Source of the DNA: Candidatus Micrarchaeota archaeon
GTDB lineage: Archaea > Micrarchaeota > Micrarchaeia > Anstonellales > Bilamarchaeaceae
NCBI GenBank assembly: GCA_023248035.1
Contig: JAHFFJ010000003.1
Location: 13,526 to 58,879 of the forward strand
Reading direction: 5' to 3'
Length of the DNA: 45,354 bases
Shown: positions 14,323 through 39,870 of the stretch, one piece after another
Numbering within the stretch: position 1 is the stretch's first letter
Layout: each line of letters starts with the position of its first letter
Made by a program: the position numbers and the translations under genes
Notes under the pieces: model-generated
The model's input: only the letters and a program-made list of their open reading frames with translations
Databases searched by the model: none
What the model was told of the DNA's origin: nothing

Positions 14323-14427
14323 ATTTTTTAATTTAAAAATAGATTAAGCCTTTGCGGGAACTTGGTTCCGACGAAAGCTCCCTTAGGCTTATAAAGTTGC
14401 CCAGGGAAAGGAAAGTGCGGTGCTCTT

Positions 14428-14709
14428 ATGCCCAAGAAGAAAACAACCAAGAGGATACATGATGCTAGTTCTTTAGAGCAGGAAACGCTAAAACGAGTGG
14501 AGCGAACTCTTGAAACATTGGGAAATTTTTTAGCAAAATGGAATTCTTCTAAAAAACCAGAGGCCATTTCAGGGCAAGTTAATATGATTAAAAAATTCTA
14601 CACTAGCCTGCAGAATTGGAAAAAAGAAGCAGACGAAGGAGAGAGGGAAGGGGCAACGCAACGACTGCGGGATTTTGTACTCATATGCCGCAGTTATGAG
14701 GTGAAATAA
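14428..14709 (+). CDS. small helical protein B (93 aa), translationally coupled to giant protein C
   Basis: Its stop TAA (14707-14709) abuts the ATG of the next gene (14710). A GAGGTGA Shine-Dalgarno for the downstream gene lies inside its 3' end. The sequence is charged and helical. Confidence 0.6.
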   Translation: MPKKKTTKRIHDASSLEQETLKRVERTLETLGNFLAKWNSSKKPEAISGQVNMIKKFYTSLQNWKKEADEGEREGATQRLRDFVLICRSYEVK

Positions 14710-22896: not shown

Positions 22897-25361
22897 CAGC
22901 AAGCGTATCATTATCCGGAAACCAAATAGTAATATTTTGCGACAAGGGAGGCTTATCAAAAAGCAGGTCTACTGGAATAATGATTGATACCAACAACCCA
23001 CAAAACATAGCTGCACAGATAGAGAGTGCAAAAAAAGCAGCAGCTGCATTTTTTAAAACTTTTAATGGTGGCGATGCTGATGTGATGGCAATAAATGCAA
23101 ATGCAGCTGCCAATGCCATAAAGAAGAGTCTTGGAATTGCTGATACTAAAGCAGAGCCAGTAGCACCTCCAGTTGCAAAAGCTCCTGCTCCAAAACAAGT
23201 GGCACCGAAACCTCAACCATCCACTCGAACTGAACAAAAAGTGCCTCCAAAAAAAGAGGCAGCAAAACCTGGAAACCCCGCTCCTGAACCGAAAGCTGCC
23301 GAACCAAAACCCAATATGGGAGGATGGAGGCCACTTAGAAGCAATGAGGTTTTACCTGAAGTTCGTGCAGTAGCAACTCCATTGCAAGGTAAACTCAAAC
23401 AAGGAGAATATCAACAGCAAACAGTAGGTACATTTAGCTATCGTTTCCGTGCTGAGCAACACGATCCAAGAGTACCAAATGGCATAAGCATTTACATAAT
23501 TCAAACACAATACGATCAGCTAAAAAAATACCTCGAAAAACTGGGAGCAGGAACGAATCCGGTAGATTCCACCCCACGCCCAACAATATCTGTGGAATGG
23601 ATACAACAGCAACTTCGCGATTCAAAAGATGATAGAAAAGGTTTAGCAGCAGCAACTTTAGCCCATCAAAATCGAGAGTATGTTGATGGTTACATTTCCG
23701 GTAATAGGAAAGAAACCACAGTAGCTTTATTTGACGCCCTTTCAGATATACCGAGCTTTAAACTTTATTTGGATTCAGTTGCCTCAAGAAAAGTACTTCC
23801 GGAATTTATAGATCTGCAAAAATCGCTCACTGAAAATCGAGGAAAAATTGAAGATAAGCAAGTAAAAGCTGCAGATTTGTACATAAGATATTTCTTATTC
23901 GGATTTGGTGCAATAAATAACCCCCAATACAATAAGGAAGTAAACCAGATTACTGCGATAATAAATGGATTAAAAGAATCCGATCCATCTGGCCAAGTAC
24001 TTATGCGAATTTATGGTTCTGGATCGGTAGATGGTGATACATTAACATCAGCATTACTTTACATAAGAAGATGGAATGCAACTCATCCAAAAAGTGGCAT
24101 CGTAAAACCAGATGAACAGGTAGCTTCTTGGAACGCACCAAAACAGGCGATGCCAGAACAAAAAATAACTGCAGGGGATGCATTTAGCCATCCAAGAATG
24201 ATTATAGTTGGAGATTCTATTTTTGCTGGGGATATAATGACCCCAAAATTACGGGCTCATCTTTTAACTGTTGATCAAAAAGCCACATTATTGAACAAAG
24301 CAGCTTCCAGTGCTCATCTTGAGGATATAAAAAGGCAGCTAGATGCAGCATTAGCTGATAAAAGTTCGAATATTATACTTATTGACGGGGGAGTTAACGA
24401 CATTGGTGCCAAACCAGAAGACATAATAAAAAAAATTGCAGCCATGCGCGATAGCGCATTAGCTGCGGGAAAAGTGGTGATGGTAGCAAAGCTTACGCCT
24501 TGGGGTAACTCCAGGTTTTGGAAAGAAAACTTACAAGAAACCTGGGAGAAGGTAAATGCAGAGATTACAAAATGGAATGATCCGCAAAAAGGAGTTTATG
24601 TAGTTGATTTTGACTGGCTTGGAGAGGGCAACCCCCCGCACATGAAACACGAGTATGCTAGCATAAGCAGCAAGGGAGAAACAGACTGGCTTCATCCAAA
24701 TACCAAAGGAAGGCAGGAGATGGCAGATTTCATATTTAGGATGATGAGTGCACGAACTACCAGCGGGTTTGCGGAAGGAAACGTGAATGTTCTGCCAGAT
24801 CTCTACCAAAAAGTTGCATTGGCAACACCAGAAGGCCTAGTAAAAATAGTTAGGGATAAATCCCAGAAAGTAGAGGATTTCGAAAAACAAAATAAAGATA
24901 GTATAAGAAAAACTTTTGATAGTGCATTTAATGAACTGCTTCATGAAAAAACCAAACCAGTTGGCCGAAATTTTATGACTTTCATACTATCGCAAACAAA
25001 ATACCGTGCCCTTGCAATGGCTGCAACAAGACTAAGTGATGAATCAAAAGAAGAGGATAGAAAGTTGGTTGCACAAGCAGTAGGAGAATTCTTAGCGAAA
25101 GAGGCGACAAATCCTAAATTCAAAATCGACCTTGCAGTTCTCAATGATAATAAGGCTTTTGGAGCGGGAACTATAAATGAACCTGACATGCGAACACTCA
25201 CTGCAATTGCGGTTTATGGCTGGAGAGTGAAGAATCCCCAGGCAGCTGGAGGAGAATGGGGAAGAGCACTTGGCATAGAGCCTCCCAAGGAGATAAAGGT
25301 AGAGCCACCAGTTGTTGAAAAAAATGCTCCACCACCAGAAAGAAGAACATTATCTTTCTGA
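22893..25361 (+). CDS. multidomain protein D (822 aa): N-terminal domain, Pro/Ala/Lys-rich linker, unknown domain, SGNH/GDSL hydrolase domain, C-terminal helical region
   Basis: ATGA overlap with gene C. SGNH blocks: I MIIVGDSIFAGD (aa 436-447), III LIDGGVNDIG (aa 496-505), V DWLHPNTKG (aa 598-606). The linker is aa 85-140 (EPVAPPVAKAPAPKQVAPKPQP...PEPKAAEPKP). Confidence 0.85.
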   Translation: MTASVSLSGNQIVIFCDKGGLSKSRSTGIMIDTNNPQNIAAQIESAKKAAAAFFKTFNGGDADVMAINANAAANAIKKSLGIADTKAEPVAPPVAKAPAPKQVAPKPQPSTRTEQKVPPKKEAAKPGNPAPEPKAAEPKPNMGGWRPLRSNEVLPEVRAVATPLQGKLKQGEYQQQTVGTFSYRFRAEQHDPRVPNGISIYIIQTQYDQLKKYLEKLGAGTNPVDSTPRPTISVEWIQQQLRDSKDDRKGLAAATLAHQNREYVDGYISGNRKETTVALFDALSDIPSFKLYLDSVASRKVLPEFIDLQKSLTENRGKIEDKQVKAADLYIRYFLFGFGAINNPQYNKEVNQITAIINGLKESDPSGQVLMRIYGSGSVDGDTLTSALLYIRRWNATHPKSGIVKPDEQVASWNAPKQAMPEQKITAGDAFSHPRMIIVGDSIFAGDIMTPKLRAHLLTVDQKATLLNKAASSAHLEDIKRQLDAALADKSSNIILIDGGVNDIGAKPEDIIKKIAAMRDSALAAGKVVMVAKLTPWGNSRFWKENLQETWEKVNAEITKWNDPQKGVYVVDFDWLGEGNPPHMKHEYASISSKGETDWLHPNTKGRQEMADFIFRMMSARTTSGFAEGNVNVLPDLYQKVALATPEGLVKIVRDKSQKVEDFEKQNKDSIRKTFDSAFNELLHEKTKPVGRNFMTFILSQTKYRALAMAATRLSDESKEEDRKLVAQAVGEFLAKEATNPKFKIDLAVLNDNKAFGAGTINEPDMRTLTAIAVYGWRVKNPQAAGGEWGRALGIEPPKEIKVEPPVVEKNAPPPERRTLSF

Positions 25362-25459: not shown

Positions 25460-26587
25460 ATGACACTAATTCAGTCTGGAGTGAAATTAGAATATTCCAA
25501 AGGAGATGCAGGAATTATTCGCAACAGACGTCCTTTTCTTAATCCAAGAATGATGGCACTTGGGGATGGACGGGATGGCATCAATCCTGCGACATTTATA
25601 GAAAGAGTACGCAATAAATTTTTCCCCCTAACTGCAGATCTGGAAAGGGTGGATATGGAATTTTTATCTGCAATGAATCGCGGGGCAAAAACTCTCAATT
25701 TTTTAATGGGTGAATATTTACCTGATAGATTATCCGATTTAAAAGTAGGCCATTTTAGCGAAGAAACCAAGTTAGAAGACTTGATTAGAGAAGCACGAAG
25801 AAGATATCGATCACTAGCAGGAACAGGAAGTGCGGAAAATAAACGCTCAATATACGAATTAATACGAGCAATTGAACTGGGCCACCAAATACTTAAGGTG
25901 GATACCGAAAAAGAAGTCCAGCTTTCCTTGAGGCATTACCAATCACTTGTAGAATGGTTCAATAAGTTCTTGGGAATTACTAGTGGAGTACCCTGCGATA
26001 GACTTCCATTTAGGAATATTTTCAATACCACAATAGATGTTGATCTTTATGGCGAAGATGATCAGGCATTTCACTCACGATTAAAATGCCTTACTTCGGA
26101 TGGAAGGATAAAATATGGTTCAATTATTATGAAAACTTATCTCGATTTACTAGATGAGGGATCTAAACCAAGGTATAGTGCAACAAAAGATTATACTGGT
26201 GTAGAATTTTTAGTTTCAAACGAAAAAGAGGCAAATGATCTTGCGGAGGCCTTTAGGTACACCAACCCCATGAGATTGTTGGAAGGATTTAAGCAACGTA
26301 AAAGAGCATCGGAGATAAAAGACAATCCAGAAGCCAGTCCTGCATTTGGACTGACAAAATTCATCTTAAGAATTCCGGTAAAAGTCGAACCAATAAAAGG
26401 CCATCCACTAGGTGATTTGTTGTGCCAATTGCTTCCAGTAGAGGTGCAGATATTAACATTAGAGGATCAACATATTAGAGCAAGCAATCCTGATGCAAAA
26501 CATGAAAGCTACAAAAAACGTCAGTTCGAAAGAGTAGTTCCAGGACTTTTCCCAAGAGAGATCTATAGGAAGGAGCTTTATAGTTAG
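25460..26587 (+). CDS. protein E (375 aa) with RelA/SpoT-synthetase-like (RSH/SAS, nucleotidyltransferase-fold) motifs in its C-terminal half
   Basis: GRIKYGSIIMK (aa 215-225; compare G-R-x-K-x(2-3)-S-I-x-x-K), KDYTGVEFLV (aa 243-252; compare D-x-x-G-x-R-h-h) and LPVEVQILTLEDQH...AKHESYKK (aa 325-353; compare EVQIRT..QH.WAE..H..YK) occur in the canonical order and spacing. Confidence 0.45.
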   Translation: MTLIQSGVKLEYSKGDAGIIRNRRPFLNPRMMALGDGRDGINPATFIERVRNKFFPLTADLERVDMEFLSAMNRGAKTLNFLMGEYLPDRLSDLKVGHFSEETKLEDLIREARRRYRSLAGTGSAENKRSIYELIRAIELGHQILKVDTEKEVQLSLRHYQSLVEWFNKFLGITSGVPCDRLPFRNIFNTTIDVDLYGEDDQAFHSRLKCLTSDGRIKYGSIIMKTYLDLLDEGSKPRYSATKDYTGVEFLVSNEKEANDLAEAFRYTNPMRLLEGFKQRKRASEIKDNPEASPAFGLTKFILRIPVKVEPIKGHPLGDLLCQLLPVEVQILTLEDQHIRASNPDAKHESYKKRQFERVVPGLFPREIYRKELYS

Positions 26588-26661: not shown

Positions 26662-27192
26662 ATGTTCAAAAAATTGAACTTATTTTCAAAAACAGAAATG
26701 GAACTTTTAACTTTTATTGCATCTAAAGATGGCGAATTTTATGAAAGGGAGATAACACGACTTACTGGTATAAGTGTTGGTTCAGTAAATAACATTCTAA
26801 AAAAATTTACTGACCTGCATTTTGTAAACAAAAAGAAGAAAGGACGGATGCAATTTTATAGTAGAAACCAGGAAAACCCTTTAATACGGCAGTTTAAGGT
26901 TTTCATTATAATATATGGCCTAATTCCATTTTTATCAAAAGCCTCACCACATAGCAAACGGATAATACTTTTTGGAAGCTGCGCTAAGGGACTTAATACC
27001 GAAAAAAGCGATATAGACTTAGTTATAATTTCAAAAGAAAAAGAACTGCTAAGAAGAATATTTGACCAAGAGGCAAGAATACAATTAATAGTTCTAGATT
27101 CTGTTGAATATGCTGAGCTTGAACAAAATGATAAACCACTTTATGAACGCATTGAAATGGGGATAGAATTACATGGTGAAGGGTATGGATGA
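26662..27192 (+). CDS. winged-helix + minimal nucleotidyltransferase (MNT) protein, antitoxin-like partner of HEPN
   Basis: N-terminal wHTH (EREITRLTGISVGSVNNILKKF), then ILFGSCAKGLNTEKSDIDLVII (the G-S-x(n)-D-x-D NTase motif). It overlaps the next gene by 20 nt. Confidence 0.75.
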   Translation: MFKKLNLFSKTEMELLTFIASKDGEFYEREITRLTGISVGSVNNILKKFTDLHFVNKKKKGRMQFYSRNQENPLIRQFKVFIIIYGLIPFLSKASPHSKRIILFGSCAKGLNTEKSDIDLVIISKEKELLRRIFDQEARIQLIVLDSVEYAELEQNDKPLYERIEMGIELHGEGYG

Positions 27193-27616
27193 GAGATTTC
27201 AAAGGTGCGTTCAAGAGGGGAAATTAGTAAAGGGAGAAATAGAATTAGATCTAGTAAAGAAAGAACTTGATGCGGCTCAATCTGATCTAAAAATTGCAGA
27301 AAAATCTTTAAGTGAGCATAACTTCAAGTGGGCAACAATTCAAGCTTATTATTCAATGTTCCACACCGCAAAAGCACTTGTGCTTAGTAAAGGTTATAGG
27401 GAAAAAAGTCATCAATGTCTTTCAGTTGCACTTAAGGCACTTTTTGTAGATAGTAGCCTTTTAAAGAAAAATCATTTCGATCATTTTAGAGACTGCATGA
27501 ATCTTAGGCAGGATGCAGACTACGGACTTATTTATTCAGAAACATCAGCAGTTGGAGCAGTGAATTGGGCAGAAGATTTTTTAGAAGCTGGAGGGGCCAT
27601 CTTAAGCAAAAGTTAA
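27173..27616 (+). CDS. HEPN-domain protein (toxin-like partner of MNT)
   Basis: WATIQAYYSMFHTAKALVLSKGY...SH and the LRQDADYG motif are typical of PF05168-type HEPN. The gene is paired with the MNT gene. Confidence 0.7.
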   Translation: MVKGMDERFQRCVQEGKLVKGEIELDLVKKELDAAQSDLKIAEKSLSEHNFKWATIQAYYSMFHTAKALVLSKGYREKSHQCLSVALKALFVDSSLLKKNHFDHFRDCMNLRQDADYGLIYSETSAVGAVNWAEDFLEAGGAILSKS

Positions 27617-27653: not shown

Positions 27654-28142
27654 TTGATCCCGTGGAATGAATTAATAGAAAAATTAGAGCTTGCGATAGT
27701 TTTTTATTTTAGAAAGGGTTGGTATGAACGTGATAAAATGTTAAAGGTAGTCGATGTAACACCAAACAGTGCAGAGATAAGGAAGATGGCGAATGGCGTA
27801 CCAAAAGGTCTTTCCATAAAAGTTGATATGGATAAGATCAGTTCGACAGACCCGCAGACAGTAGTAATAGCCTTCACATACACAGTTGACTACGAACCCG
27901 AAGTGGCAATTGTTAAAGTAAAGGGAACAGCATTGTGCAGGGACACGCCGGAGAATATCAAAAAGCTTCTTTTAGAGCATAAAAAAGGAAAGGTACCTCT
28001 TGAAATTGCAGGAAGTGCAATAAATGCCATAAATTCAAATGTCGGATTAAGTACAATATTCATGGTAAGGCCATTCAACCTTTTGCCACCATTTATGCCG
28101 CCAGCTCTGGTGGATGAAACAGCATTAAAGGGTAAAAAATAG
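27654..28142 (+). CDS. hypothetical protein, possibly a SecB-like chaperone fold; likely true start at the Met at 27738 (MLKVVDV)
   Basis: The layout is beta-rich segments (VVIAFTYTVDYEPEVAIVKVKGTALC), then a helix, then RPFNLLPPFMPP. This loosely parallels E. coli SecB (...FLCEVQQGGIF..., GTFPQLNLAPVNF). The resemblance is weak. Confidence 0.3.
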   Translation: MIPWNELIEKLELAIVFYFRKGWYERDKMLKVVDVTPNSAEIRKMANGVPKGLSIKVDMDKISSTDPQTVVIAFTYTVDYEPEVAIVKVKGTALCRDTPENIKKLLLEHKKGKVPLEIAGSAINAINSNVGLSTIFMVRPFNLLPPFMPPALVDETALKGKK

Positions 28143-28678: not shown

Positions 28679-31600
28679 TCAGAAACTCACTTTTGCATAT
28701 CCCATAATCCATAATGGCATTCTGCCATTGGTTATGCTTGTTGCATAAGGCTGCATGGTTTCTTCCTGAGTAATATCAGCAGCTACATTAGGCCAGGTTC
28801 CGCGTGCTCCCGTTAATGAGAATGTATATGAACTACCAATTAATTCTCTTTGTTGATCACTAAAAGAAACCCCTACACCTGCCCGGAACACAAACTGGTT
28901 GGTAAGGTCAGATGCAGAACTAACAGTGCTTTTGTAGCCTGTATATCCTGGGTAGGTTGCCTGTTCACTAGCAACATAAAAGTCCCGCCTTGATTCAACA
29001 CCACCCTCAAAGAAGAGATGGAGTGCTAGACTGCTTCCGCTTGATATATTGGCTCTTGCCCAGGTGTAACCAGTACCAATTGTAGTACGGCTAAAGTTTC
29101 CAAGATCACACTTGCCTTCGTTTACGCAAAGATCGTGTTCTTCCTGGGTAGTTACGATTACTTTTCTTTCAGTGCGATTAAAGGCGATGTAGAAATAATG
29201 ATTACTGCTCATTTTTTCGGTTGTAATGCCGCTCACTCTTGCAGTGGTTGCTACTTTCCATGATTTCCAGTCTTCGTTTCCAAACTCACGTATTCCATAA
29301 AGCGCACCTGCAAGCCAGTCTCCTTTTTGATCCTGAAGGAGTTGAACAAGACCACCAACGGTGAAGTTCTTTCCAGCTTGGTATGTGGTTCCAAGAATTT
29401 CAGAATTCAAAGGCAAAGTTATTCCTCCAACCACACGGGCTGCAGTAAGGAAGCTCATTCTGCGATCTCCGGAAAATACAAAGTCATAGCCATCACCACT
29501 GCGTTTTATTTCAACTTTGACTATACCCCTGCCAATGAAATAGCCTTTCTTTTGCCAGTCTTCAAGATCAAGGTCATTACCAAGACGAAGAGAGTAACGT
29601 GCACCTGGATTTGCAGCATCACCAGTAACTAGCATATAAAGATGATCATAGCGAGGTGCCTTGGCTCCAAGTGCAGCTTCTTTCTGTAGCTGCGCCCCTA
29701 GAATTACATCATAATTTTCAGGATGCCTTGCAAGGATAGGATCGGGAAGCGATTGCAACACAACAGCGGCCATGTTCTGCTCAAATAGCTGGGCAACTTC
29801 ACCGCCAGATAATTTTTCTGAACCTTGAGACTGTTTTATAGGCGCATCAGCGATTGCCTTTAGCACTCCTTCTGAATTCTTTTTGAACTGTGAATCCATT
29901 CTCTTTTCTGGTAGGAGTACCCATTCAAGTGCAACTGGAGAATGACGAATCACACTCACAAGATCTTTACCATATTTAGATTCGAGTCTTTGTACATCAG
30001 GTGTAGGAGCACGAAGTTCGCTATAGATATCTGCAAGAGCCTTTGCAAGATCAGCAGTCTTGTCCTCTGATTTTATAGTTGGCTTAAAGTTGACCATCAT
30101 TTGCCTAACTGCGGGCTCTTCGAGCCTTGCACTTATTTCCCGATCGATTTCAGAAACAGGACGAACAACCCAACTAAGATTAGCCTGGCTGCCCCTAACT
30201 GCAGTTACAAATGGTTTTCCATAAGCATCCTCAAGGCGGCTGAAGTTTGAAAAGTCTGAACCAAATTCAACATAGCAGTCACGAAGTGCGCGAACGGGTT
30301 GTGCCTGCTTAGAAACATGCAACTCGTGTTCATAACGATTTACTTGGATTGCTGGCCAGTCCACCACTCCAAAGCCACCATAAAGACTGGTGTATGGAGT
30401 AGATTTTTGTCTTTGCACATCAAGACGAGCAGTTCCAGTTGCTGCATCTCCACTTTCAGTTATGACAACAGGTGCGTATTGGAATGCGTGTGCAGCAACA
30501 TCGAAATATGTGCTGGTTGGCCTTCCGAAAAGTACAAGTCCATAAAGGCTTCCATAAGCAGATGAAAGATCATCGTATGCAGGATTCTTACCTGCTGCAG
30601 CTACAACATAAATTCTTGTCTGTTCTCCATCATACCCATAACCTAGAGCAAACTTCCAGATGTCCTGTTTCATTGCATTTTGCATATCCTTAGATAGACC
30701 TTCAAGTATCGATTGCTCGTTTTCCGGTGAGGTAGTAATTTCATTCATTGCCCGATCAATGCGATCGGAAATTGCACGGAAACCAGGAACCCGCTCACCA
30801 CCAACAAGAATGCCATGGCGATTGGCCCAGTACATCATAAGCACTGAAACATAATTAGGATTGAGCCTTGGAACAGTCTTGCCATTTGCATCGACTTCTT
30901 GTGTTGAAGTAGAATAACTACCATCAGGATTTTTCACTACCCAATTCTCAAGCTGGCTGTACATGTAGCTTGCAGAAACCAGCCACCCAACATTGCGTGC
31001 TTCATCTTCCGACCAGTGATAGGCATGAACAAGACTATTTACTGTCTTGGTGTACATTTTGTCGGTTTCCGCACTCACTGCACGGAAATCCTGTAAAAGG
31101 TCGACTTCGTGATGAGAAAGTGTAAGTCCATATGCAGTAGTACGTGTTTTTGTAGGACGATCTTCACGACGATATCTTGCACCAATTGTTGGTTGCGGAC
31201 CTCCTCCTGCAAGCCTTAATTCCCAGCTTGATTCTAGTGGGTCAATACGCACCGTACGCCACATAAGTTCTCCTGTTCCCTCTGACCAGTGCGAACCTGT
31301 TATTGAAGGAGCAGCAGTGGGATTTTTTGGATCAACTGCAGCACGATCAAGAACCTGAGTGCCGCGATAGAATCCTGCATAAATGCTTCTTTGTTTCTTG
31401 CTGCTAAGAAGATCAGTAATTGCCATACCAGCAGCCTGCTCGACATGAAGGGGATCCATGGTGTTGATGTTTCTTACAAGTTCACCAAAAGTGAGGGCAG
31501 CAAAATTATCACCAACTCCACGAGGTATAGTTATACCTACAGCAGCACCATCAAAACCGTGGGCTGCCGAATCGCTAGTAAGCATTTTACTTCCCATAAA

Positions 31601-34600
31601 TTTAAGCGAGGCAAGAATGTTGTCCTGATTGGTATTGCCAAAAAGGTAGTTGAGTATTTGTACCGAAGTATCATTTCCAACTGCATCCCGGCTGCTATTA
31701 AGTCCATATGCAACCTGATAGATCCCGCCTTCTGGTGTAAGGATATAGGCACGGGTCTTTAGCTTGTCGTTCTTGGTCTGGACAACAGTACCAGCACTAT
31801 CCTTTAGTTCTGGAACATGTTCGCCTGCAACAAGAAGGAGCATGTCAGTTCCGCTATTACGAGCTATTCTTGAATAACTTTCAAAAAGTCCAGAAGTTTT
31901 TAATGCAGTAGTAAGGCTTTGTGAAGTTGGATCTGCCATTGTCCCGCCGGAAACTTCTTTATCAGTAGAAGCAAATTCGTGATGGAATAAAGCACGGGAA
32001 CGAATAAGGTCATCTGCACCTGGAACACCAAGTCTTATTCCCCCTGCCCTTGCCTCCACATCTGCGTTACGAGTGACTGTTGAGGTTGCAGTTTTTATTG
32101 GTGGTGCATCTGGTTGGTCGGCTAGTGGAGGTGCACTATAAGCATCATCAGTTTTCGTCTCACCAGTATAAATGGCACGTTCAGTTACACCGCCAGTTAT
32201 ACCACGATGAACCCCAAGAGCAGCAGCACCCGCACGACTGGTGGTAGCCGCCCGGTCACTTTCAATAGAACCAAATCCACCAGCTTCTGCATTGTGACTA
32301 AGCCAATAGCTGCTGTAGTCGGTGGGCATTGGACCAAAGAGCTTGGTGAGGCTGCGAATTATTGTTGCTTCACCTATTGCATCGATCTTAAATGGTGAAG
32401 GCACTCTCAAACGGAATAATCTTTCAGTTGGTGGTCTTAGCCCTTCATACATTCTTGTGAAACCTGCTCGCGCACCGGAATCTAATGTAAAGCCACCAGG
32501 AACTGGAAGGCTTGGGCTAGTTGGTGCAGTTGGACTAAAGTCAATTGAAAATGGGAATGGGTTGACACCATAAAGATTTGGTATTTGCGGGGGTTGGGCG
32601 AAAAGAGGAGAGGGTTTGTAACGATAGAGGAATGGGTTTAGGTAGCTTTCATCAGTTAGAGGTTCTGGTATTCTCCTAAGTTCATCCTGAAGACGGGTGT
32701 GATCGTAGGTACTTGTGATGATGGGAAGATTCTTTCCAATTTTTTCGAAGACTTCGAGGAAATATTTACGATTAATTGAAGTGCTATAAGCAAGGTCACG
32801 CATACCATCCTGATAGCGGGTGGAGAAGAGGTTGTTAAATGCAGTAATTGCTGCGACCAGGCTCTTTTCATCAGGACAAACTTCAATAAGAGCTGGAAGG
32901 ACATTGAGAAGATAGGGACCAACAAGATAAGGATCCCGGTGAGCAATAAGAAGTACTGAATCCATGGTTGCCCGTGCAGCCTGGGAACTGAATGCAGAAT
33001 CTGTTCCTCCGATATGTTCAAGAGCTACACCAAGATAAAGTGCATCAAGTATGCTTAGCTGATTTCTTAGGCTCTTGATAGAATCATCACTATACTCCCA
33101 TCCAAGCGAACTCACATTGGTTCCTTCTTTTTCTCTCGACATGAGATAGTTGGTCTCGAGCTGATCGTAGAATTTATGTCCGGCAGCAACAAGCGACCGT
33201 CCGGATTCTGAAGTTAAAAATGATACCATATCTTCTGGTGAACGTAAGCCTCTTGAAGCAACTGAACCAGTTAGTGATAGGTTGTAACGTTTTGCAAGAC
33301 GTCCAACACTTTTATTGAGCAAATCGAGGTTTATGTATTGCCCAAATAGATAGTCGCTTGCACCAAATTCCGATCTATAATGTTCTACTGCATGACGAAG
33401 GTTGATTTCAAAACTACCTACCTGACCTGGTGTTGAATCAACTGCATTGGAAAATGAAAGCGCGGATTTAATATCAACATAAACCTGTGGCACAACATCA
33501 GCAACATGATGGAAATTATACATAAAGTTTGCACGTCCAGGCCCAGGGCCTTTATCAAATGCAGCATTAAGTCCCTCCTCTAATCCTGGTTTGAGGTTGT
33601 GAAGATCATTTGGATCTTTTATCGAGCTAAGCTCTTTCTGGTTGGCAAAAACAAAACGTACCAATTCCGGACCGTATGCCTCCCGAAGCTCATTGACCAC
33701 CCTTATATAATCTGCTTTGTATGGCTCCGAATCTTGCGGAGTAGGTGCATGGGTAATTCCATCTTCATAAATTTTCACAACTGCATCATAAAGGTGGTTG
33801 TCCTGTTTTCGGTAGGCATGCATGAGTATCTTGTTAATTTTAGGAGGGATATCAGAAACTTTGAATGCTGGATTTTCAAGAACCCTAAGATCATGAAGAT
33901 TGCTTTCTACTCCAGCTACAAATGCTGACCCATATTGTTCATTAAGCCTTACACGATTGCGCTCATCCAGGCCTCCTGCCCTAAGTTCGGAATACAGCCT
34001 TCCAAGAACCTGAGGATAGGTCCGATCATCCATACTGTTTATGAATCGATAAAGTTCGGGAGTGGCACGATAAAGCACGCTTGCAACCACATCACCAATT
34101 GCAGATTGTTTTTCATGGGTGAGGTCTTTTTGTCCGGTACTTTCATACCATGCAAGGAGTCTTTGAAGAGTTACCGTATCCCCACTTGAAACTGAAAATC
34201 CTGAAGTGGAATTTATATCTCCGCCAGTTTCGGCAAGATGAATCATTGCAAATGCAAGTTCAGCAGCTTTCCTAAGTTCAAATCCGTTTACCATCTGATT
34301 TCTTAGTTGGTCCTGCTGATCACTGATTCTTTTTAGGGATTGGTGATCTCCGCTTGATTCAGCTGCTGTTTTGAGGCGTTCGTTTTCCCTCCTCCATTTC
34401 CATAGATGCTCACGTAAAACCGCTCTTGCTGGGACAAAAATATCTTCACCAAGCTGGCGTTCAACATCTTTAGCTGCAGCTTCCAGTTCATTATAAGTAT
34501 TGCTTATTTCTTGGATTTTATCGCTAATTTCATTGCCAGAAACAACTGGCCCGCTAGAAATCGTAACACGTGAGGTTACAGGATTGACAAAGAGCGTACC

Positions 34601-37066
34601 TAGCGAATCTTCTACATCCATTTTTTCAAGTGCACTTGCACTTATTGCAAGACGTGCACGCACCATGGAAGAAGAAAGCTGGGTGGGTGTAAAGCTATAA
34701 AGAAGATTTGCTTCGCCAACACGAAGAGAAATTGGATCATTAGTGTTAGATATGTTCTCTTGGGCATCACGCTCATTCTTCCAGTTTAATCGTGAATAGT
34801 TCGCTTGGACAATCTTTAGTGCATTTTCACCATAAGCCGCAACAAGAGCAGCGCGATCAGGTGAGGATTTACCAAGTTCAAGATAAATTGCATAAAATGC
34901 TCTTGAGAGGCCATCTACAGAATAGCCAACCGATGGATTTCGATAGAGCGGGAGTAGCTCTTTATTTCTTTTACCCATTTCCTCATCAATCTGCTCTACT
35001 GGCCTTACTATCCAGCTCAATGCCTGAAGATTGGATGAAACAGTATCGTAGAATTTTTGGCCTTCTTTGCCTTGAGCTGTTACAAATGCCGCCCGTTTTT
35101 GCCTTACCCCAGAGATCTCAGCATAAGCAGTGTTCATTTGTAGGATATTTACTTTTTGCATTCCTGCTCCAGAAAGGGCAAGTGCAAGTTTATCTTTTGC
35201 ACTAACAAGAGCAGTGAAATCGGAATACGCATCTCCAGGTAGTTTGGATAACCATGATAATTGATCAAAATTCTTGTCTATTAGGTCAACCAACTTGCGA
35301 CCATCTACCGGAGGTACCGCTTCCCGATTTGTTCTTGCAAGTACAATTTCATTATAATTTGTAGAAAGCCAGGCAAGATCACTAACTTGTATACCTGCAT
35401 TTGCAAGTGCAATAGCAGTGGGATCACGAATAGAAAGTAGACGGTTATATTCCGCACTCAGATCAGCAACAGGTTTAGAAAGCCAGGATAGACTAGTGAA
35501 ATTTTTCTGAATAATATTTGCAGTCTCAAGTTTTTCACCTAATGCCTGCTTACTCATTCTTTCGGTAAGTGCAATGGAATAAGCAACCGAAGTCGCCTTA
35601 CCTTTTTGATCAGTAGTTGACATTTCCCAAAGTCTCTTTGCAACAGCATCCCCTTCACTGGCTCTTGCATTCATCATAGTTGCAACATTGCCTGCGGGAC
35701 GAATGAGCCAACCCAGCGTAGAGTAATTTTGGAAAACAAAATTAACCAGCTGCGAACCATAGTCTCTTTTAAGAGCATCACGATCTGAATTTTTGGCAAG
35801 TGAAGTGTAGATATCTCGTAATGATATTGCAAAGAAATTACGATTAAGACGAAGGGCAAGGGTACCAATAAGGACATTTGAACGCAATTTTTCACGATAG
35901 AGATTCTTGAATTCGTCAAAGAAAACGTTGTCGTTTATTATTGAATCTCCTAGGTATGTTCCCTTGAGTATTTGTGAAAAATCCTGCCCTGCCTTTGCTA
36001 TTTCAAGGCGGGTGGATGCAGTAGTTATGCCTTCAAGAGTGGATGCAGCCCTTCTTGCTAGAGCAAGCCTATAGAGAGTGGCTACTGGTTCAACTATTTT
36101 GACTCCTAGAGAATCATTATCATACTGGACCTTTAATGTTTCAATTTTTTTGGAGTCACCCTTTGGAAGGTCTTTATATATTTCAGACACAACAGCTGCA
36201 AATTCCCTTGGATCTACCCCTCGTTTTGCAGGGTCAGGGTCATTGTCTTTCTTTTTCTTATATGCCTGGAAAATAGGACCTAGTTGTTTATCGGAAGAAA
36301 TGCTTTCATGGAATGCTGCACTAAAGCCAATCATGAATTCTGGTGAAGTATTCGCAGCAAAAATTGCACTAAATTCTGCCCCCTTTACGCTATCGCCAGT
36401 AAGAAGGTGGGCTTTTAATGCCGCAATAGCCATTCTGGCAGCTTCAGTTGGCATTCTATTGGACAATTCAGAAACAAGATGATTACCAAACTTATTTTTC
36501 AGATCTTCCATTGCAGCAGGTGTTTTTATACTCCCAATTTCAGAGCGGATTTTCGATACTGTAAGAATAAAGTCTACAAGCAGTATTGCAGGCTCCATCC
36601 TTACAAATAGTACGTGCGGTTTGTCCTTTTTGAAAGCCTCATAAAGTGAACTTAGTTCGGGTTGTTTTAGGTAGTTTTGGATCTCGCTTATAAGCGAGTT
36701 ACGAAATACTCTTTGGTTGTTAAAGGCTAAACCATTGAAGGGCTGATCGTAAATACTCATAAAGCGCTGGTAACTTGCTGGATTACCTGAAAGAAGATAA
36801 TCGCGATAGGCAGTTGCCGCCTCTTTTGCACTTGAAAGCAAATGCCTCTTACTTTCATCCGTAGTTAGCTGGGAGGGTTGTGCCATAGCAGATCTTACTC
36901 CTAAATTGTTTATATTGTTTGCGCTCTCGGTCGTCATAACGGTTGCAAGAGCAGCAGCACTAAAAATAGAAAAGTAACGGCCAAATGTGAAAAGTTTTCT
37001 TCTGTGCGAAAGTGATTGGCCTAACCCCCCTTTTTGATCCTCCGGATTTATACGGGAACCGGCCAT
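28679..37066 (-). CDS. orphan giant protein F (2795 aa): long RR-containing leader, helical repeat region, Pro-rich hinge, globular region, C-terminal beta-strand-rich domain ending in KVSF
   Basis: Uninterrupted 8.4-kb ORF. The N terminus is MAGSRINPEDQKGGLGQSLSHRRKLFTFGRYFSIFSAAALATVMTT...SAMAQP. Repeated Y-G-x-x-L-V...L-S-W-h-x-R/K-P modules. The last 308 aa have about 12 amphipathic strand-like segments. Confidence 0.9.
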   Translation of the reverse strand: MAGSRINPEDQKGGLGQSLSHRRKLFTFGRYFSIFSAAALATVMTTESANNINNLGVRSAMAQPSQLTTDESKRHLLSSAKEAATAYRDYLLSGNPASYQRFMSIYDQPFNGLAFNNQRVFRNSLISEIQNYLKQPELSSLYEAFKKDKPHVLFVRMEPAILLVDFILTVSKIRSEIGSIKTPAAMEDLKNKFGNHLVSELSNRMPTEAARMAIAALKAHLLTGDSVKGAEFSAIFAANTSPEFMIGFSAAFHESISSDKQLGPIFQAYKKKKDNDPDPAKRGVDPREFAAVVSEIYKDLPKGDSKKIETLKVQYDNDSLGVKIVEPVATLYRLALARRAASTLEGITTASTRLEIAKAGQDFSQILKGTYLGDSIINDNVFFDEFKNLYREKLRSNVLIGTLALRLNRNFFAISLRDIYTSLAKNSDRDALKRDYGSQLVNFVFQNYSTLGWLIRPAGNVATMMNARASEGDAVAKRLWEMSTTDQKGKATSVAYSIALTERMSKQALGEKLETANIIQKNFTSLSWLSKPVADLSAEYNRLLSIRDPTAIALANAGIQVSDLAWLSTNYNEIVLARTNREAVPPVDGRKLVDLIDKNFDQLSWLSKLPGDAYSDFTALVSAKDKLALALSGAGMQKVNILQMNTAYAEISGVRQKRAAFVTAQGKEGQKFYDTVSSNLQALSWIVRPVEQIDEEMGKRNKELLPLYRNPSVGYSVDGLSRAFYAIYLELGKSSPDRAALVAAYGENALKIVQANYSRLNWKNERDAQENISNTNDPISLRVGEANLLYSFTPTQLSSSMVRARLAISASALEKMDVEDSLGTLFVNPVTSRVTISSGPVVSGNEISDKIQEISNTYNELEAAAKDVERQLGEDIFVPARAVLREHLWKWRRENERLKTAAESSGDHQSLKRISDQQDQLRNQMVNGFELRKAAELAFAMIHLAETGGDINSTSGFSVSSGDTVTLQRLLAWYESTGQKDLTHEKQSAIGDVVASVLYRATPELYRFINSMDDRTYPQVLGRLYSELRAGGLDERNRVRLNEQYGSAFVAGVESNLHDLRVLENPAFKVSDIPPKINKILMHAYRKQDNHLYDAVVKIYEDGITHAPTPQDSEPYKADYIRVVNELREAYGPELVRFVFANQKELSSIKDPNDLHNLKPGLEEGLNAAFDKGPGPGRANFMYNFHHVADVVPQVYVDIKSALSFSNAVDSTPGQVGSFEINLRHAVEHYRSEFGASDYLFGQYINLDLLNKSVGRLAKRYNLSLTGSVASRGLRSPEDMVSFLTSESGRSLVAAGHKFYDQLETNYLMSREKEGTNVSSLGWEYSDDSIKSLRNQLSILDALYLGVALEHIGGTDSAFSSQAARATMDSVLLIAHRDPYLVGPYLLNVLPALIEVCPDEKSLVAAITAFNNLFSTRYQDGMRDLAYSTSINRKYFLEVFEKIGKNLPIITSTYDHTRLQDELRRIPEPLTDESYLNPFLYRYKPSPLFAQPPQIPNLYGVNPFPFSIDFSPTAPTSPSLPVPGGFTLDSGARAGFTRMYEGLRPPTERLFRLRVPSPFKIDAIGEATIIRSLTKLFGPMPTDYSSYWLSHNAEAGGFGSIESDRAATTSRAGAAALGVHRGITGGVTERAIYTGETKTDDAYSAPPLADQPDAPPIKTATSTVTRNADVEARAGGIRLGVPGADDLIRSRALFHHEFASTDKEVSGGTMADPTSQSLTTALKTSGLFESYSRIARNSGTDMLLLVAGEHVPELKDSAGTVVQTKNDKLKTRAYILTPEGGIYQVAYGLNSSRDAVGNDTSVQILNYLFGNTNQDNILASLKFMGSKMLTSDSAAHGFDGAAVGITIPRGVGDNFAALTFGELVRNINTMDPLHVEQAAGMAITDLLSSKKQRSIYAGFYRGTQVLDRAAVDPKNPTAAPSITGSHWSEGTGELMWRTVRIDPLESSWELRLAGGGPQPTIGARYRREDRPTKTRTTAYGLTLSHHEVDLLQDFRAVSAETDKMYTKTVNSLVHAYHWSEDEARNVGWLVSASYMYSQLENWVVKNPDGSYSTSTQEVDANGKTVPRLNPNYVSVLMMYWANRHGILVGGERVPGFRAISDRIDRAMNEITTSPENEQSILEGLSKDMQNAMKQDIWKFALGYGYDGEQTRIYVVAAAGKNPAYDDLSSAYGSLYGLVLFGRPTSTYFDVAAHAFQYAPVVITESGDAATGTARLDVQRQKSTPYTSLYGGFGVVDWPAIQVNRYEHELHVSKQAQPVRALRDCYVEFGSDFSNFSRLEDAYGKPFVTAVRGSQANLSWVVRPVSEIDREISARLEEPAVRQMMVNFKPTIKSEDKTADLAKALADIYSELRAPTPDVQRLESKYGKDLVSVIRHSPVALEWVLLPEKRMDSQFKKNSEGVLKAIADAPIKQSQGSEKLSGGEVAQLFEQNMAAVVLQSLPDPILARHPENYDVILGAQLQKEAALGAKAPRYDHLYMLVTGDAANPGARYSLRLGNDLDLEDWQKKGYFIGRGIVKVEIKRSGDGYDFVFSGDRRMSFLTAARVVGGITLPLNSEILGTTYQAGKNFTVGGLVQLLQDQKGDWLAGALYGIREFGNEDWKSWKVATTARVSGITTEKMSSNHYFYIAFNRTERKVIVTTQEEHDLCVNEGKCDLGNFSRTTIGTGYTWARANISSGSSLALHLFFEGGVESRRDFYVASEQATYPGYTGYKSTVSSASDLTNQFVFRAGVGVSFSDQQRELIGSSYTFSLTGARGTWPNVAADITQEETMQPYATSITNGRMPLWIMGYAKVSF

Positions 37067-37211: not shown

Positions 37212-37246
37212 CTTTATACTATAGTAGTTATATTATTTTATACTAT
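37212..37246 (+). promoter_or_regulatory. putative promoter/operator of the wHTH gene: 10-bp direct repeat tttatactat x2
   Basis: tttatactat occurs at 37213-37222 (TATA-like, ~27 nt upstream of the ATG at 37245) and again at 37237-37246, overlapping the start codon. Both lie in the 178-nt region shared divergently with giant gene F. Confidence 0.35.
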
Positions 37247-38144
37247 GAAGATAAGTAACAGGGAGATAGAGATTCTAGATTACCTAATGGGCAGAAAAGC
37301 TACTTTCAAATCGGTTGCCATAACACTAGGGATAAAAAAATCCAACCTCACAAAATACATAAAAAAACTTGAAAGATACCGACTAGTTACTCTTAGGAGA
37401 GATGGCCAGCATAAAGAAATACATCTTGAGTATGCAATTTGGTTTGGTTTTTTTGGGGTAAGACAAACATTTCCAGAAATTAAACTAAAGGATATTTTGA
37501 TTGGTAGAGTACCGTTTCTTTTAAGCTTTATTAAAAATAGGCAAAAATTCAGGATACGGGATTTGGATATTCCTGCAGTATCTGCTAAGAAGATTTTAAG
37601 CAAACTTAGAAAAACAGGAATAATTTTTATGCCCACTAGAGGAGTGTATAGTTTGAGAGAAGAAGCTTTGCCTGCAGCTGAATTTTGCAGGGATGTATTA
37701 ATGCAGATGTATGTGGCAGAGGGTGAACATGAAATGGAAGATATAAAACAAGTATTTTTCTCATTTGATAGTGTGTTGGGGGTTGAGGTAGTTTTTGTCA
37801 CTGGACAGGAAAATTCGCCTAAAAATTATTGGCTTACATCTTATAGTGTGTTTCACAAATACGGCATAGATTTAATTCTTGCAGGAAAATATTATTACAC
37901 GAATATTAAACCTGATTTAGAGGATATAATAATTCATACTTTAGCTCTTAGCAGAGATATAAGAAGCATAGCTTACGTTGCTTCTCTTATGTTTAGGCAC
38001 AAATTTAGTGATAAATTGCTAAAAAAGAAGCAGCGTTTTGGCCTGAAAGAAGAATTCATAACGAAGCTGATCCAGTTTGTAGAATCAAAAAACGGGAAAA
38101 CTTTCGAAGGATTCCCTTCATGGGAAGAAGTTGAGGCGGTCTAG
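37245..38144 (+). CDS. winged-helix DNA-binding protein (AbiEi-like antitoxin/regulator candidate)
   Basis: N-terminal wHTH (REIEILDYLMGRKATFKSVAITLGIKKSNLTKYIKKLERYRLV). Its stop TAG abuts the ATG of the downstream nucleotidyltransferase gene. Confidence 0.5.
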   Translation: MKISNREIEILDYLMGRKATFKSVAITLGIKKSNLTKYIKKLERYRLVTLRRDGQHKEIHLEYAIWFGFFGVRQTFPEIKLKDILIGRVPFLLSFIKNRQKFRIRDLDIPAVSAKKILSKLRKTGIIFMPTRGVYSLREEALPAAEFCRDVLMQMYVAEGEHEMEDIKQVFFSFDSVLGVEVVFVTGQENSPKNYWLTSYSVFHKYGIDLILAGKYYYTNIKPDLEDIIIHTLALSRDIRSIAYVASLMFRHKFSDKLLKKKQRFGLKEEFITKLIQFVESKNGKTFEGFPSWEEVEAV

Positions 38145-38774
38145 ATGTTTGACGCAAAATATATCGATACCGAACTTGAAATCATTGGTTCACGAATTAA
38201 AAGACCGCTCAGCGTCTACCTTATAGGGGGCTGTGCCATGTCCTTCCGCGGACTGAAGGAATCAACAAAGGATATTGATATTGTTTTCAAAAATGACCTG
38301 GATTACGAGCTATTTTGCGATGCGCTCTTTGGAGCACAATATTTTGAACCATTTACTATAAAATCAGAACATGAAAACCTTAAAGCTGCAAGGATGTTCG
38401 AGAATAAAGATGGTTTTCATTTAGACTTGTTTGTTAAGCAAGTAGTAGGAAAACTAATTCTGTCAAAGTCAATGATTCAGAGGGCAGAAAAATACAAGCA
38501 ATACGGTAAACTAACGGTTTATATTCTATCAAGAGAAGATATTTTCCTTTTCAAGGGACTTGCAAGCGAAAGTAGAAAAAGAGACTTGGGAGATATGCAA
38601 ATTTTGTACCCAAACCTTAACTGGAAGTATATTGAAGCAGAATTGAGAACTCAAGCTTTGACAACAGAATTGATTCAACTGTTCATAAGGAGGCTTGATG
38701 AGTTTAGCAGGATTTACAGACTGGATGTACCGATAATGGCAAGGCTAAAGACAACGGTAAGGAAACTGAAATGA
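38145..38774 (+). CDS. Pol-beta-superfamily nucleotidyltransferase (AbiEii/DUF6036-like toxin candidate)
   Basis: VYLIGGCAMSFRGLKESTKDIDIVF (G-G-x(n)-D-I-D) plus the downstream acidic GFHLDLFV motif. The gene is translationally coupled to the wHTH gene. Confidence 0.5.
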   Translation: MFDAKYIDTELEIIGSRIKRPLSVYLIGGCAMSFRGLKESTKDIDIVFKNDLDYELFCDALFGAQYFEPFTIKSEHENLKAARMFENKDGFHLDLFVKQVVGKLILSKSMIQRAEKYKQYGKLTVYILSREDIFLFKGLASESRKRDLGDMQILYPNLNWKYIEAELRTQALTTELIQLFIRRLDEFSRIYRLDVPIMARLKTTVRKLK

Positions 38775-39392: not shown

Positions 39393-39590
39393 GTGTGTAT
39401 GAAAAATGTTGATATAAATACTGTTTACGAAGAAATCAGGTTAGTTAGAAAAAAACTAGAATATTTGGAAAATATTCTAATACCAGAGGAGACTCTTTCA
39501 GAAAAAGAATTAAAAGAAATTGACAAATTAAGAGCGGAAGCCTTAGAAGAGCACAAAAAAGGACAGACAATAAAACTTGATGAACTCTAG
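39393..39590 (+). CDS. small antitoxin-like protein upstream of RelE/ParE (likely true start at ATG 39399)
   Basis: About 63 aa, helical and acidic. Its 3' end overlaps the start of the toxin ORF. Confidence 0.5.
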   Translation: MCMKNVDINTVYEEIRLVRKKLEYLENILIPEETLSEKELKEIDKLRAEALEEHKKGQTIKLDEL

Positions 39591-39870
39591 GGTTTTGCTG
39601 ATGTTCCAGGTTGAATTTAAAAAATCCGCGAAAAAGGAAATAGATGAATGTCCTTTGGAATATAGAGCAAAGGTCATTGAAGCTTGTAAATTTTTAAGAG
39701 ATGAGCCGTACCCATTCAGATTTTATGACGTTAGGAAGGTTGCTGGAAGAGAACATATATATGGCATAAGAATTGGCAGGTACAGGCTGATATACGAAGT
39801 ATTTAAGGAAGAGAAATTGATTTTGATACTTAAGATACAGATTAAGTCTGAAACTATTTATAAATTTTAA
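39577..39870 (+). CDS. RelE/ParE-family toxin (alternative start at ATG 39601, MFQVEFKK)
   Basis: VEFKKSAKKEIDECP... and GIRIGRYRLIYEVFKEEKLILILKI match the RelE/ParE core pattern (R-I-G-x-Y-R-h-I-Y). Confidence 0.75.
   Translation: MMNSRVLLMFQVEFKKSAKKEIDECPLEYRAKVIEACKFLRDEPYPFRFYDVRKVAGREHIYGIRIGRYRLIYEVFKEEKLILILKIQIKSETIYKF

Follow-up and report, generated by a model that had tools for sequence, protein, structure and literature searches.

We analysed a stretch of 45,354 nucleotides from contig JAHFFJ010000003.1 of a Candidatus Micrarchaeota archaeon (hereafter the window, to which all positions refer) and focused on a single uninterrupted open reading frame (ORF) that encodes a protein of 2,795 amino acids, here called the giant protein. 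This appears to be a lineage-specific secreted envelope protein, and the models of its C-terminal domain suggest that this domain could be embedded in a membrane as a barrel-type anchor or pore, a reading to which we assign a probability of about 0.45. A first-pass annotation, made from the sequence alone, had likened the protein to a giant bacterial autotransporter. The likeness to bacterial outer-membrane proteins is one of fold and principle, without detectable homology.

Architecture of the giant protein

28679 to 37066, minus strand: giant gene, a single uninterrupted ORF of 2,795 residues, probable secreted envelope protein, apparently Micrarchaeota-specific
28682 to 29644, minus strand: C-terminal beta domain, residues 2475–2795 (AlphaFold2, Foldseek against the PDB and the viral structure library BFVD, family alignment, strand-face analysis)
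28682 to 28714, minus strand: last strand, LWIMGYAKVSF, hydrophobic at positions 1, 3, 5, 7, 9 and 11 from the C-terminus

An AlphaFold2 (AF2) model of the last 333 residues, built on a 21-sequence family alignment, is almost all beta, with strands of 11–18 residues and a mean predicted local distance difference test score (pLDDT) of 75 and a predicted template modelling score (pTM) of 0.63; about one third of its residues have pLDDT < 70. At the start of the predicted domain, two strands and a helix make up a small sub-domain; 14 antiparallel strands of about 8–18 residues then succeed one another as a meander. The domain also holds a variable-length hairpin and a helix in which a pair of Cys residues is conserved. 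The Cys pair and the secretion leader described below fit an extracytoplasmic location. A second, independent AF2 run (residues 1596–2795) gives the same secondary structure for the C-terminal domain, and both runs predict an even number of antiparallel, neighbour-paired strands, as the barrel class requires. All 12 beta-strand-like segments that the first-pass annotation had picked out coincide with predicted strands. The 12-strand type Va translocator proposed from them is not supported by AF2, which gives 14 strands plus the sub-domain, with more beta modules upstream. In the model the domain begins at about residue 2475 (window position 29644), slightly earlier than the start first noted; the region originally described, window 28682–29605, corresponds exactly to residues 2488–2795.

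Foldseek comparison of the 333-residue model with the PDB returned beta-barrel membrane proteins for all 50 of the matches listed, of which 48 are bacterial or mitochondrial outer-membrane barrels and two are chains of the pore toxin alpha-hemolysin. The outer-membrane barrels matched include FhuA, BamA, FadL (probability 0.96–0.99), Legionella porin I (0.98), Sam50 and TonB-dependent transporters. A viral structure library is expected to be rich in capsid jelly rolls. In BFVD the best matches are nevertheless of outer-membrane type (a Legionella-type major outer-membrane protein, an autotransporter beta-domain, OmpW and OmpC); the top match is an S8 protease that is not itself named as a barrel, and the autotransporter beta-domain, a weak match at E = 0.28, is the sole autotransporter-type protein among the structural matches listed. 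No jelly roll or sandwich is found among the 50 matches listed from the PDB or from the viral library. The soluble sandwich or jelly roll that had been named as the counter-case is thus not borne out among the listed Foldseek matches, which does not in itself establish a closed barrel.

At the sequence level the protein stands apart from described families. Searches with hmmscan gave no Pfam match at E ≤ 1 for the whole giant protein, for its last 333 residues or for any of the 21 family domains, and the C-terminal domain has no NCBIfam match and no significant PDB-sequence match by profile search. The proposed membership in the autotransporters fails on this point, as neither PF03797 nor any other outer-membrane-protein family is matched at E ≤ 1. 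Faint matches to DUF481 (E = 0.06, one member), Glyco_hydro_42C (E = 0.03) and a dicistrovirus jelly-roll capsid profile (E = 0.34, not significant) were treated as noise.

The C-terminal end of the giant protein reads ...PLWIMGYAKVSF in the ORF translation, with KVSF as its last four residues. In the outer-membrane beta-signal the chain terminates in an aromatic residue, and positions 3, 5, 7 and 9 counted back from the C-terminus are hydrophobic; Struyve et al. are said to have described in 1991 the classical C-terminal signature of bacterial outer-membrane proteins. The hydrophobic-x-Phe ending was recognised as such a signature in the first-pass annotation, and it proves to be conserved across the family. 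Of 34 non-redundant C-termini in the family, 25 have an aromatic residue as their very last one (17 W, 6 F, 2 Y), the hydrophobic fraction at positions 3, 5, 7, 9 and 11 from the end is 0.7–1.0 in the same set, and the ten genome orthologues described below all end in hydrophobic-x-W. Because family identity is only 20–40%, yet both the aromatic residue and the exact stop position are conserved, selection on both is indicated.

When the predicted strands are read together with the family alignment, five to six consecutive alternate positions are hydrophobic in domain strands 136–153, 216–229, 262–275, 283–293 and 323–333, and a stripe of this length is about the span of a bilayer core. The face opposite the stripes is polar, Gly-rich or charged, and aromatic residues are often located at the stripe ends. 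The hydrophobic/polar alternation seen at first is present, but by pattern count it is only modestly above chance (see below), and for this reason the weight of the observation rests on structure prediction and conservation.

36881 to 37066, minus strand: N-terminal leader, residues 1–62 (alignment of 20 family N-termini, hydropathy)
34781 to 35914, minus strand: alpha-helical repeat modules of ~75 residues, residues ~385–762 (internal BLAST repeats, motif L.W[LIV]..P)
30311 to 31546, minus strand: long beta-hairpin modules, residues 1841–1985 and 2135–2252 (AF2 model of residues 1596–2795)
29870 to 30310, minus strand: two helical repeat modules, residues 2253–2399, just upstream of the C-terminal domain

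The long N-terminal leader noted at the outset is conserved in the family alignment, with a basic n-region, a hydrophobic stretch and the pattern NINNxG...AMA↓QP. In the giant protein a polar and basic n-region precedes the hydrophobic IFSAAALATVM, the conserved NINNLG and a putative AMA↓QP signal-peptidase site; the hydrophobic stretch is about 11–15 residues long and its best 11-residue window has a mean Kyte–Doolittle hydropathy of 2.08. From its sequence the leader resembles an extended Sec signal with putative cleavage at the AxA-like AMA↓QP. The motif [GS]-x-N-I-N-N-x-G-x-N-x-A-M-A-Q-P is located between the hydrophobic stretch and the putative cleavage site, in a c-region of about 16 residues that is unusually long for a Sec signal, and may mark a dedicated processing or targeting step.

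More copies of the ~75-residue helical repeat are found at residues ~1046–1152. The two copies at residues 2253–2399 (within positions 662–856 of the long model) carry a period-3.6 hydrophobic signal (z = 7.6) and are modelled as helices; they are missing in the shorter family members P0012, P0016 and P0018, and a helical linker of ~75 residues separates them from the C-terminal domain. The strands of the upstream beta-hairpin modules lie at model positions 246–390 and 540–657, with pLDDT mostly 55–89 and helices between the modules, and a third module is predicted at lower confidence at residues ~1608–1730. The hairpin modules rank among the best conserved parts of the giant protein (39–53%), whose best conserved regions are residues 1300–1600, 1800–2200 and 2500–2600. 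Over residues 1600–2795 about 31–36 long strands are predicted, in a 1,200-residue model (residues 1596–2795) with a pLDDT of 62.7 and a pTM of 0.38. The last 308 residues had been described as a complete change of character; a beta domain is indeed predicted there, but it is not the only one, given the hairpin modules at residues 1841–1985 and 2135–2252. Comparison with hhalign detected no homology between these upstream modules and the C-terminal domain, and internal duplication was rejected (probabilities < 3%).

Alternative readings of the beta domain

The giant protein shares with type Va autotransporters (PF03797) a long leader, a huge N-terminal part, a C-terminal beta domain of ~300 residues and a hydrophobic-x-aromatic end. 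Helices are predicted by AF2 ahead of the C-terminal domain, and may or may not correspond to the helical linker that runs through the pore of the 12-strand type Va barrel. The giant protein differs from type Va proteins in that its N-terminal half consists of alpha-helical repeats whereas the autotransporter passenger is a beta-helix, in its ~14 predicted strands plus sub-domain as compared with 12, in its extra upstream beta-meander modules, and in its origin from an archaeon without a known barrel assembly machinery (BAM), translocation and assembly module (TAM) or outer membrane. No Omp85 or POTRA protein was found among the window ORFs scanned.

Other barrels come closer. The best Foldseek match of the 1,200-residue model is Deinococcus SlpA (PDB 8ae1, 8agd; E = 1.8e-5), followed by the type 9 secretion translocon SprA (8gl6, 6h3i), LptD (9fz5) and MtrB (6r2q), with E-values up to 1.3e-3. 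These are very large proteins with about 26–36 long strands and inserted domains, comparable to the ~31–36 strands predicted here, but they have no sequence homology to the giant protein, and the template modelling scores (TM-scores) are only 0.05–0.23, without global superposition. FadL and the TonB-dependent transporters (FhuA, PqqU, YncD) give the highest Foldseek probabilities and TM-scores for the 333-residue model (for PqqU, a query-normalised TM-score, TMq, of 0.37). Like the model, they have a small N-terminal sub-domain, which in these barrels is a plug or hatch, ahead of a meander of long strands. FadL itself is a 14-stranded carrier of hydrophobic substrates. The resemblance is limited by E-values of 0.005–0.07, a root-mean-square deviation (rmsd) of 9–18 Å and the lack of a Pfam match to Toluene_X or TonB_dep_Rec. 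In principle, the giant protein is closer to large barrels with plugs or inserted domains (FadL, TonB-dependent transporters, SlpA, SprA, LptD) than to autotransporters.

Several observations weigh against a membrane-embedded barrel. Taken together, the PDB matches of the 333-residue model are weak (E 5e-3 to 7e-2, TM-scores 0.13–0.37, rmsd 9–23 Å). We counted superposition on a solved barrel only at a TM-score of at least 0.5, and no listed match reaches this value (best TMq 0.37; best target-normalised score, TMt, 0.34). Strict alternating hydrophobic/polar runs in the single sequence give z = 1.4–1.6 (p about 0.1), and the autocorrelation of the family profile is marginal (z about -2.2 at lag 1 and about +2.2 at lag 2). 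Domain strands 106–133 and 157–174 are hydrophobic on both faces, which fits plug-like packing on the N-terminal sub-domain and equally fits a soluble core. The alignments behind the AF2 models are shallow (17–21 sequences). We know of no archaeal membrane beta-barrel and of no archaeal insertase, and tetraether host membranes may resist spontaneous insertion. Finally, for the cultured Ca. Micrarchaeum harzensis an S-layer has taken the place of the two-membrane view of ARMAN/Micrarchaeota cells (bioRxiv 10.1101/2021.04.28.441871). In addition to these points, beta-amphipathic windows were not enriched by a hydrophobic-moment count (Eisenberg scale, 170 degrees; z = -0.5).

The strongest competing reading is an amphipathic beta-sheet outside the membrane: the C-terminal domain, together with the upstream beta modules, would make up open sheets or grooves, and their hydrophobic face would bind lipid or another protein. 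On this view the giant protein does not cross a bilayer, and it would either ferry host lipids or be attached to the S-layer. We consider this rather unlikely. It would account for beta-hairpin modules that extend over about 1,000 residues instead of one terminal barrel, for the low TM-scores to closed barrels and for the several strands with two hydrophobic faces; ranked by TM-score, the model aligns best with portions of wide 22-strand barrels, and this points to a sheet of low curvature. Giant proteins with long beta-meanders and one hydrophobic face are known among the ApoB/vitellogenin-type lipid binders (ApoB100, PDB 9e9r) and in the bridge-like lipid-transfer proteins TamB and VPS13, and ApoB100 is among the matches of the 1,200-residue model (E = 0.015). 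It is, however, alone there, with probabilities of only 0.04–0.09: no TamB- or VPS13-type protein occurs in the top 50 matches, Chorein_N, AsmA, TamB and the lipid-transfer families have no Pfam match, and the beta modules are not recognisable repeats of a single unit. The conserved aromatic end with its 1-3-5-7-9 hydrophobic pattern also marks membrane barrels and not lipid grooves; to our knowledge, an outer-membrane-protein-like C-terminal signature is not a feature of ApoB-, TamB- or VPS13-type proteins. From the side of the biology, the organism requires host lipids (PMC8975820), and the giant gene has an SGNH/GDSL hydrolase gene as one of its conserved neighbours; by analogy with the ApoB-, TamB- and VPS13-type proteins, a role in lipid scavenging would be in keeping with a symbiont that relies on the lipids of its host.

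Less probable again is a soluble or mispredicted fold, that is, an extracellular beta-sandwich, jelly roll or other adhesin module in which the terminal Trp or Phe is a core residue. The shallow alignments, the third of residues with low pLDDT, the pTM of the long model and an alternation barely above chance would all be in line with such a fold, as would the capsid profile match if it were not so faint as to lack significance. Hairpin strands of 14–18 residues are nevertheless unlike those of sandwiches, neither fold is represented among the listed structural matches, and the two independent AF2 runs agree in secondary structure.

Family distribution and origin

The distribution of the family was established with an exhaustive HMMER scan of 1.84 billion representative proteins, using the C-terminal domain. 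About 29 clusters were found, most of them proteins of 2,000–3,000 residues with the domain at the extreme C-terminus, and none of those that could be placed is bacterial. The family was revealed by this exhaustive scan; a word-indexed protein search recovered one fragment only, even with the family profile. A scan of one genome per GTDB species, with a 9-sequence alignment as query, gave ten loci, all labelled Candidatus Micrarchaeota or Micrarchaeia. In each of the ten, the whole giant protein is conserved over residues 1–2795 (32–43% identity), the same small ORF ('o162') adjoins the giant gene and trm56 is located within the locus; an SGNH/GDSL-hydrolase protein is encoded nearby in nine and pgm in eight.

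Three divergent members were examined (P0016, P0027 and P0029, with domain identity down to about 28%). Two of them have trm56 nearby and the third shows only the small ORF after the gene. One of the two with trm56 has the full order of ftsY, a giant protein, a protein of ~500 residues, the beta-tailed giant itself, the small ORF, trm56 and pgm; across the loci, the protein between the two giants has ~500–800 residues.

In the window, the genes around the giant gene are of the archaeal kind that the first-pass annotation had described, and include aTrm56, eIF6 and an FtsY-type signal recognition particle receptor, in addition to HEPN/nucleotidyltransferase pairs. The identical 2,795-residue protein is present in three assemblies (NCBI, Logan and ENA), on contigs of 46–59 kb with the same neighbours. 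Full-length conservation, synteny and the identical assemblies exclude, for practical purposes, both a mis-joined contig and a recent acquisition from bacteria, two origins that had been raised for the gene: the protein was assembled identically three times, and full-length orthologues in the same neighbourhood are present in all of the Micrarchaeota genomes recovered (10/10). The gene is best explained as Micrarchaeota-specific and vertically inherited.

The idea of a horizontally acquired bacterial autotransporter or outer-membrane-protein gene, or of a mis-joined bacterial fragment, is effectively refuted: it can draw on the overall layout, with a leader, a long N-terminal portion and a C-terminal beta domain that stops on hydrophobic-x-Phe, and on the GC content of the gene (0.40–0.47, above the 0.34–0.39 of its immediate flanks), but the window's other large genes have a similar GC content, no autotransporter or outer-membrane-protein family is matched, the 29 clusters are nearly all giant proteins of the same design, and even the divergent members examined keep parts of the neighbourhood.

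Neighbouring genes and proposed role

27738 to 28142, plus strand: small neighbour 'o162', ~134 residues with a Lys-rich tail, true start probably M29
22893 to 25361, plus strand: SGNH/GDSL hydrolase protein, 822 residues (Pfam PF13472 and PF00657, synteny)
14710 to 22896, plus strand: second giant protein, 2,728 residues, with internal hydrophobic segments and no leader

The small ORF 'o162' adjoins the giant gene in the 11 loci examined (tblastn, blastp), and its homologues were found in Micrarchaeota only. It has no Pfam, NCBIfam or PDB match and is possibly a partner of the giant protein. Neither family nor PDB matches support a role like that of SecB or Skp for it.

In most relatives, the SGNH/GDSL gene immediately precedes the giant gene and has the same orientation. 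The 822-residue protein encoded in the window has a Pro/Ala/Lys-rich N-terminal region. Its ending (...TLSF) raised the possibility of a C-terminal sorting motif common to both proteins, which was rejected as the orthologues of the GDSL protein do not keep that ending. A counterpart of the 2,728-residue protein precedes the GDSL-like gene in related loci, and giant ORFs of 1,628 and 3,192 residues occupy the same position in loci L012 and L013. The genes for the giant partner, the hydrolase and the beta-tailed giant protein follow one another in one direction, downstream of ftsY, in most relatives; in the window studied here they are set apart by an inversion and by inserted toxin-antitoxin genes.

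Three large co-directional ORFs (1,042, 2,728 and 822 residues) are located downstream of ftsY at window 11194–25361 on the plus strand, and the 1,042- and 2,728-residue ORFs have no Pfam match. The occurrence of counterparts of these three ORFs before the beta-tailed giant suggests a single multi-gene envelope module.

Toxin-antitoxin-like pairs flank the giant gene (plus strand, window 26662–27616, 37245–38774 and ~39577–39870). They comprise a nucleotidyltransferase with HEPN, a MarR/AbiEi-like protein with a DUF6036 nucleotidyltransferase, and a ParE-type toxin. These genes are placed where the gene order departs from that of relatives and may be linked to local rearrangement.

Some further features of the surroundings were recorded. 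At ~43295–45354 on the plus strand, the window ends within the gene for a large protein whose N-terminus carries a membrane anchor or signal (MDKRLIVFGLVVIVLVLGVFFFV). On a longer public contig it has 1,514 residues, with a subtilisin-type Peptidase_S8 domain and a weak PG_binding_1 match, and it may be another surface or host-directed enzyme. The 375-residue ORF at 25460–26587 (plus strand) has a weak C-terminal match to TIGR04552/TIGR04562 (E about 3e-6, far below the cut-offs) and its place beside the giant gene is not conserved in relatives. No tRNA genes or Rfam RNAs were found within the window. In the P0016 locus (L014, 5026–7838), SecD/SecF-like genes are immediately upstream of the giant gene in divergent orientation; a recurrent link of the giant gene to protein-export genes, SecD/SecF-like in this locus and ftsY in other relatives, is unproven.

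Given a membrane-embedded C-terminal domain, the protein may work as follows. The giant protein would be exported via Sec by its conserved leader of ~62 residues. At the sequence level its N-terminal half is built of the ~75-residue helical repeats, and its C-terminal ~1,000 residues are predicted to form long amphipathic beta-hairpin meanders. The last ~320 residues would fold into a 14-strand domain like a bacterial outer-membrane barrel, with the small N-terminal sub-domain; the chain closes on an outer-membrane-protein-type last strand with its aromatic final residue. Without the help of a BAM machine, the domain would then become part of a lipid membrane and serve there as a barrel-type anchor or pore.

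The membrane concerned is most probably at the symbiont–host interface, either that of the wall-less host or a contact-site membrane. The cultured Micrarchaeon has incomplete lipid synthesis, depends on host lipids and has the same lipids as its host, which has a single membrane; the surfaces of the cells are remodelled at contact sites (PMC8975820). S-layer protein homologues were reported in 38 of 49 Micrarchaeota genomes (bioRxiv 10.1101/2021.04.28.441871). Action at the host interface is favoured because of this S-layer in the symbiont, the lipid dependence, the single-membrane host and the contact-site remodelling, and an outer membrane of the symbiont itself is the less likely location. 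More speculatively, the giant protein might act jointly with the second giant, a membrane protein conserved alongside it, the SGNH/GDSL hydrolase and the small neighbour in host attachment and in the uptake of lipids or metabolites.

A more specific version of this scheme is conceivable, and we regard it as doubtful: a BAM-free transmembrane barrel of archaeal origin, inserted after secretion into the host or contact-site membrane as a pore or anchor that draws lipids or metabolites, and convergent on the bacterial C-terminal beta-signal. The barrel could in that case be the ~320-residue domain, or the ~1,200-residue region could form one giant SlpA/SprA-like barrel of ~30 strands.

Giant, lineage-specific secreted proteins are also known from other host-dependent DPANN nano-archaea, for example the SPEARE proteins of Ca. 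Nanohaloarchaeum antarcticus, which are suspected in host attachment or membrane breaching and carry recognisable protease, adhesion and nuclease domains. The giant family described here differs from them in that it has no recognisable domain and ends in a barrel-like beta domain. Beta-barrels in membranes are taken to typify bacterial outer membranes and bacteria-derived organelles; we know of none from archaea, and the literature searched reported no beta-barrel membrane protein from an archaeon, DPANN members included. If the membrane location is true, this would be the first such barrel family found in archaea and a test case for the insertion of large barrels without an insertase. An archaeal barrel-like family could also reopen the nature of the second layer once seen around ARMAN/Micrarchaeota cells. 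The family is a candidate for the long-sought molecule that links DPANN symbionts to the membranes of their hosts and enables lipid acquisition. Even if the beta domain is a lipid-binding sheet outside the membrane, the giant gene would belong to an uncharacterised, syntenic four-gene module that is apparently core to this Micrarchaeota lineage.

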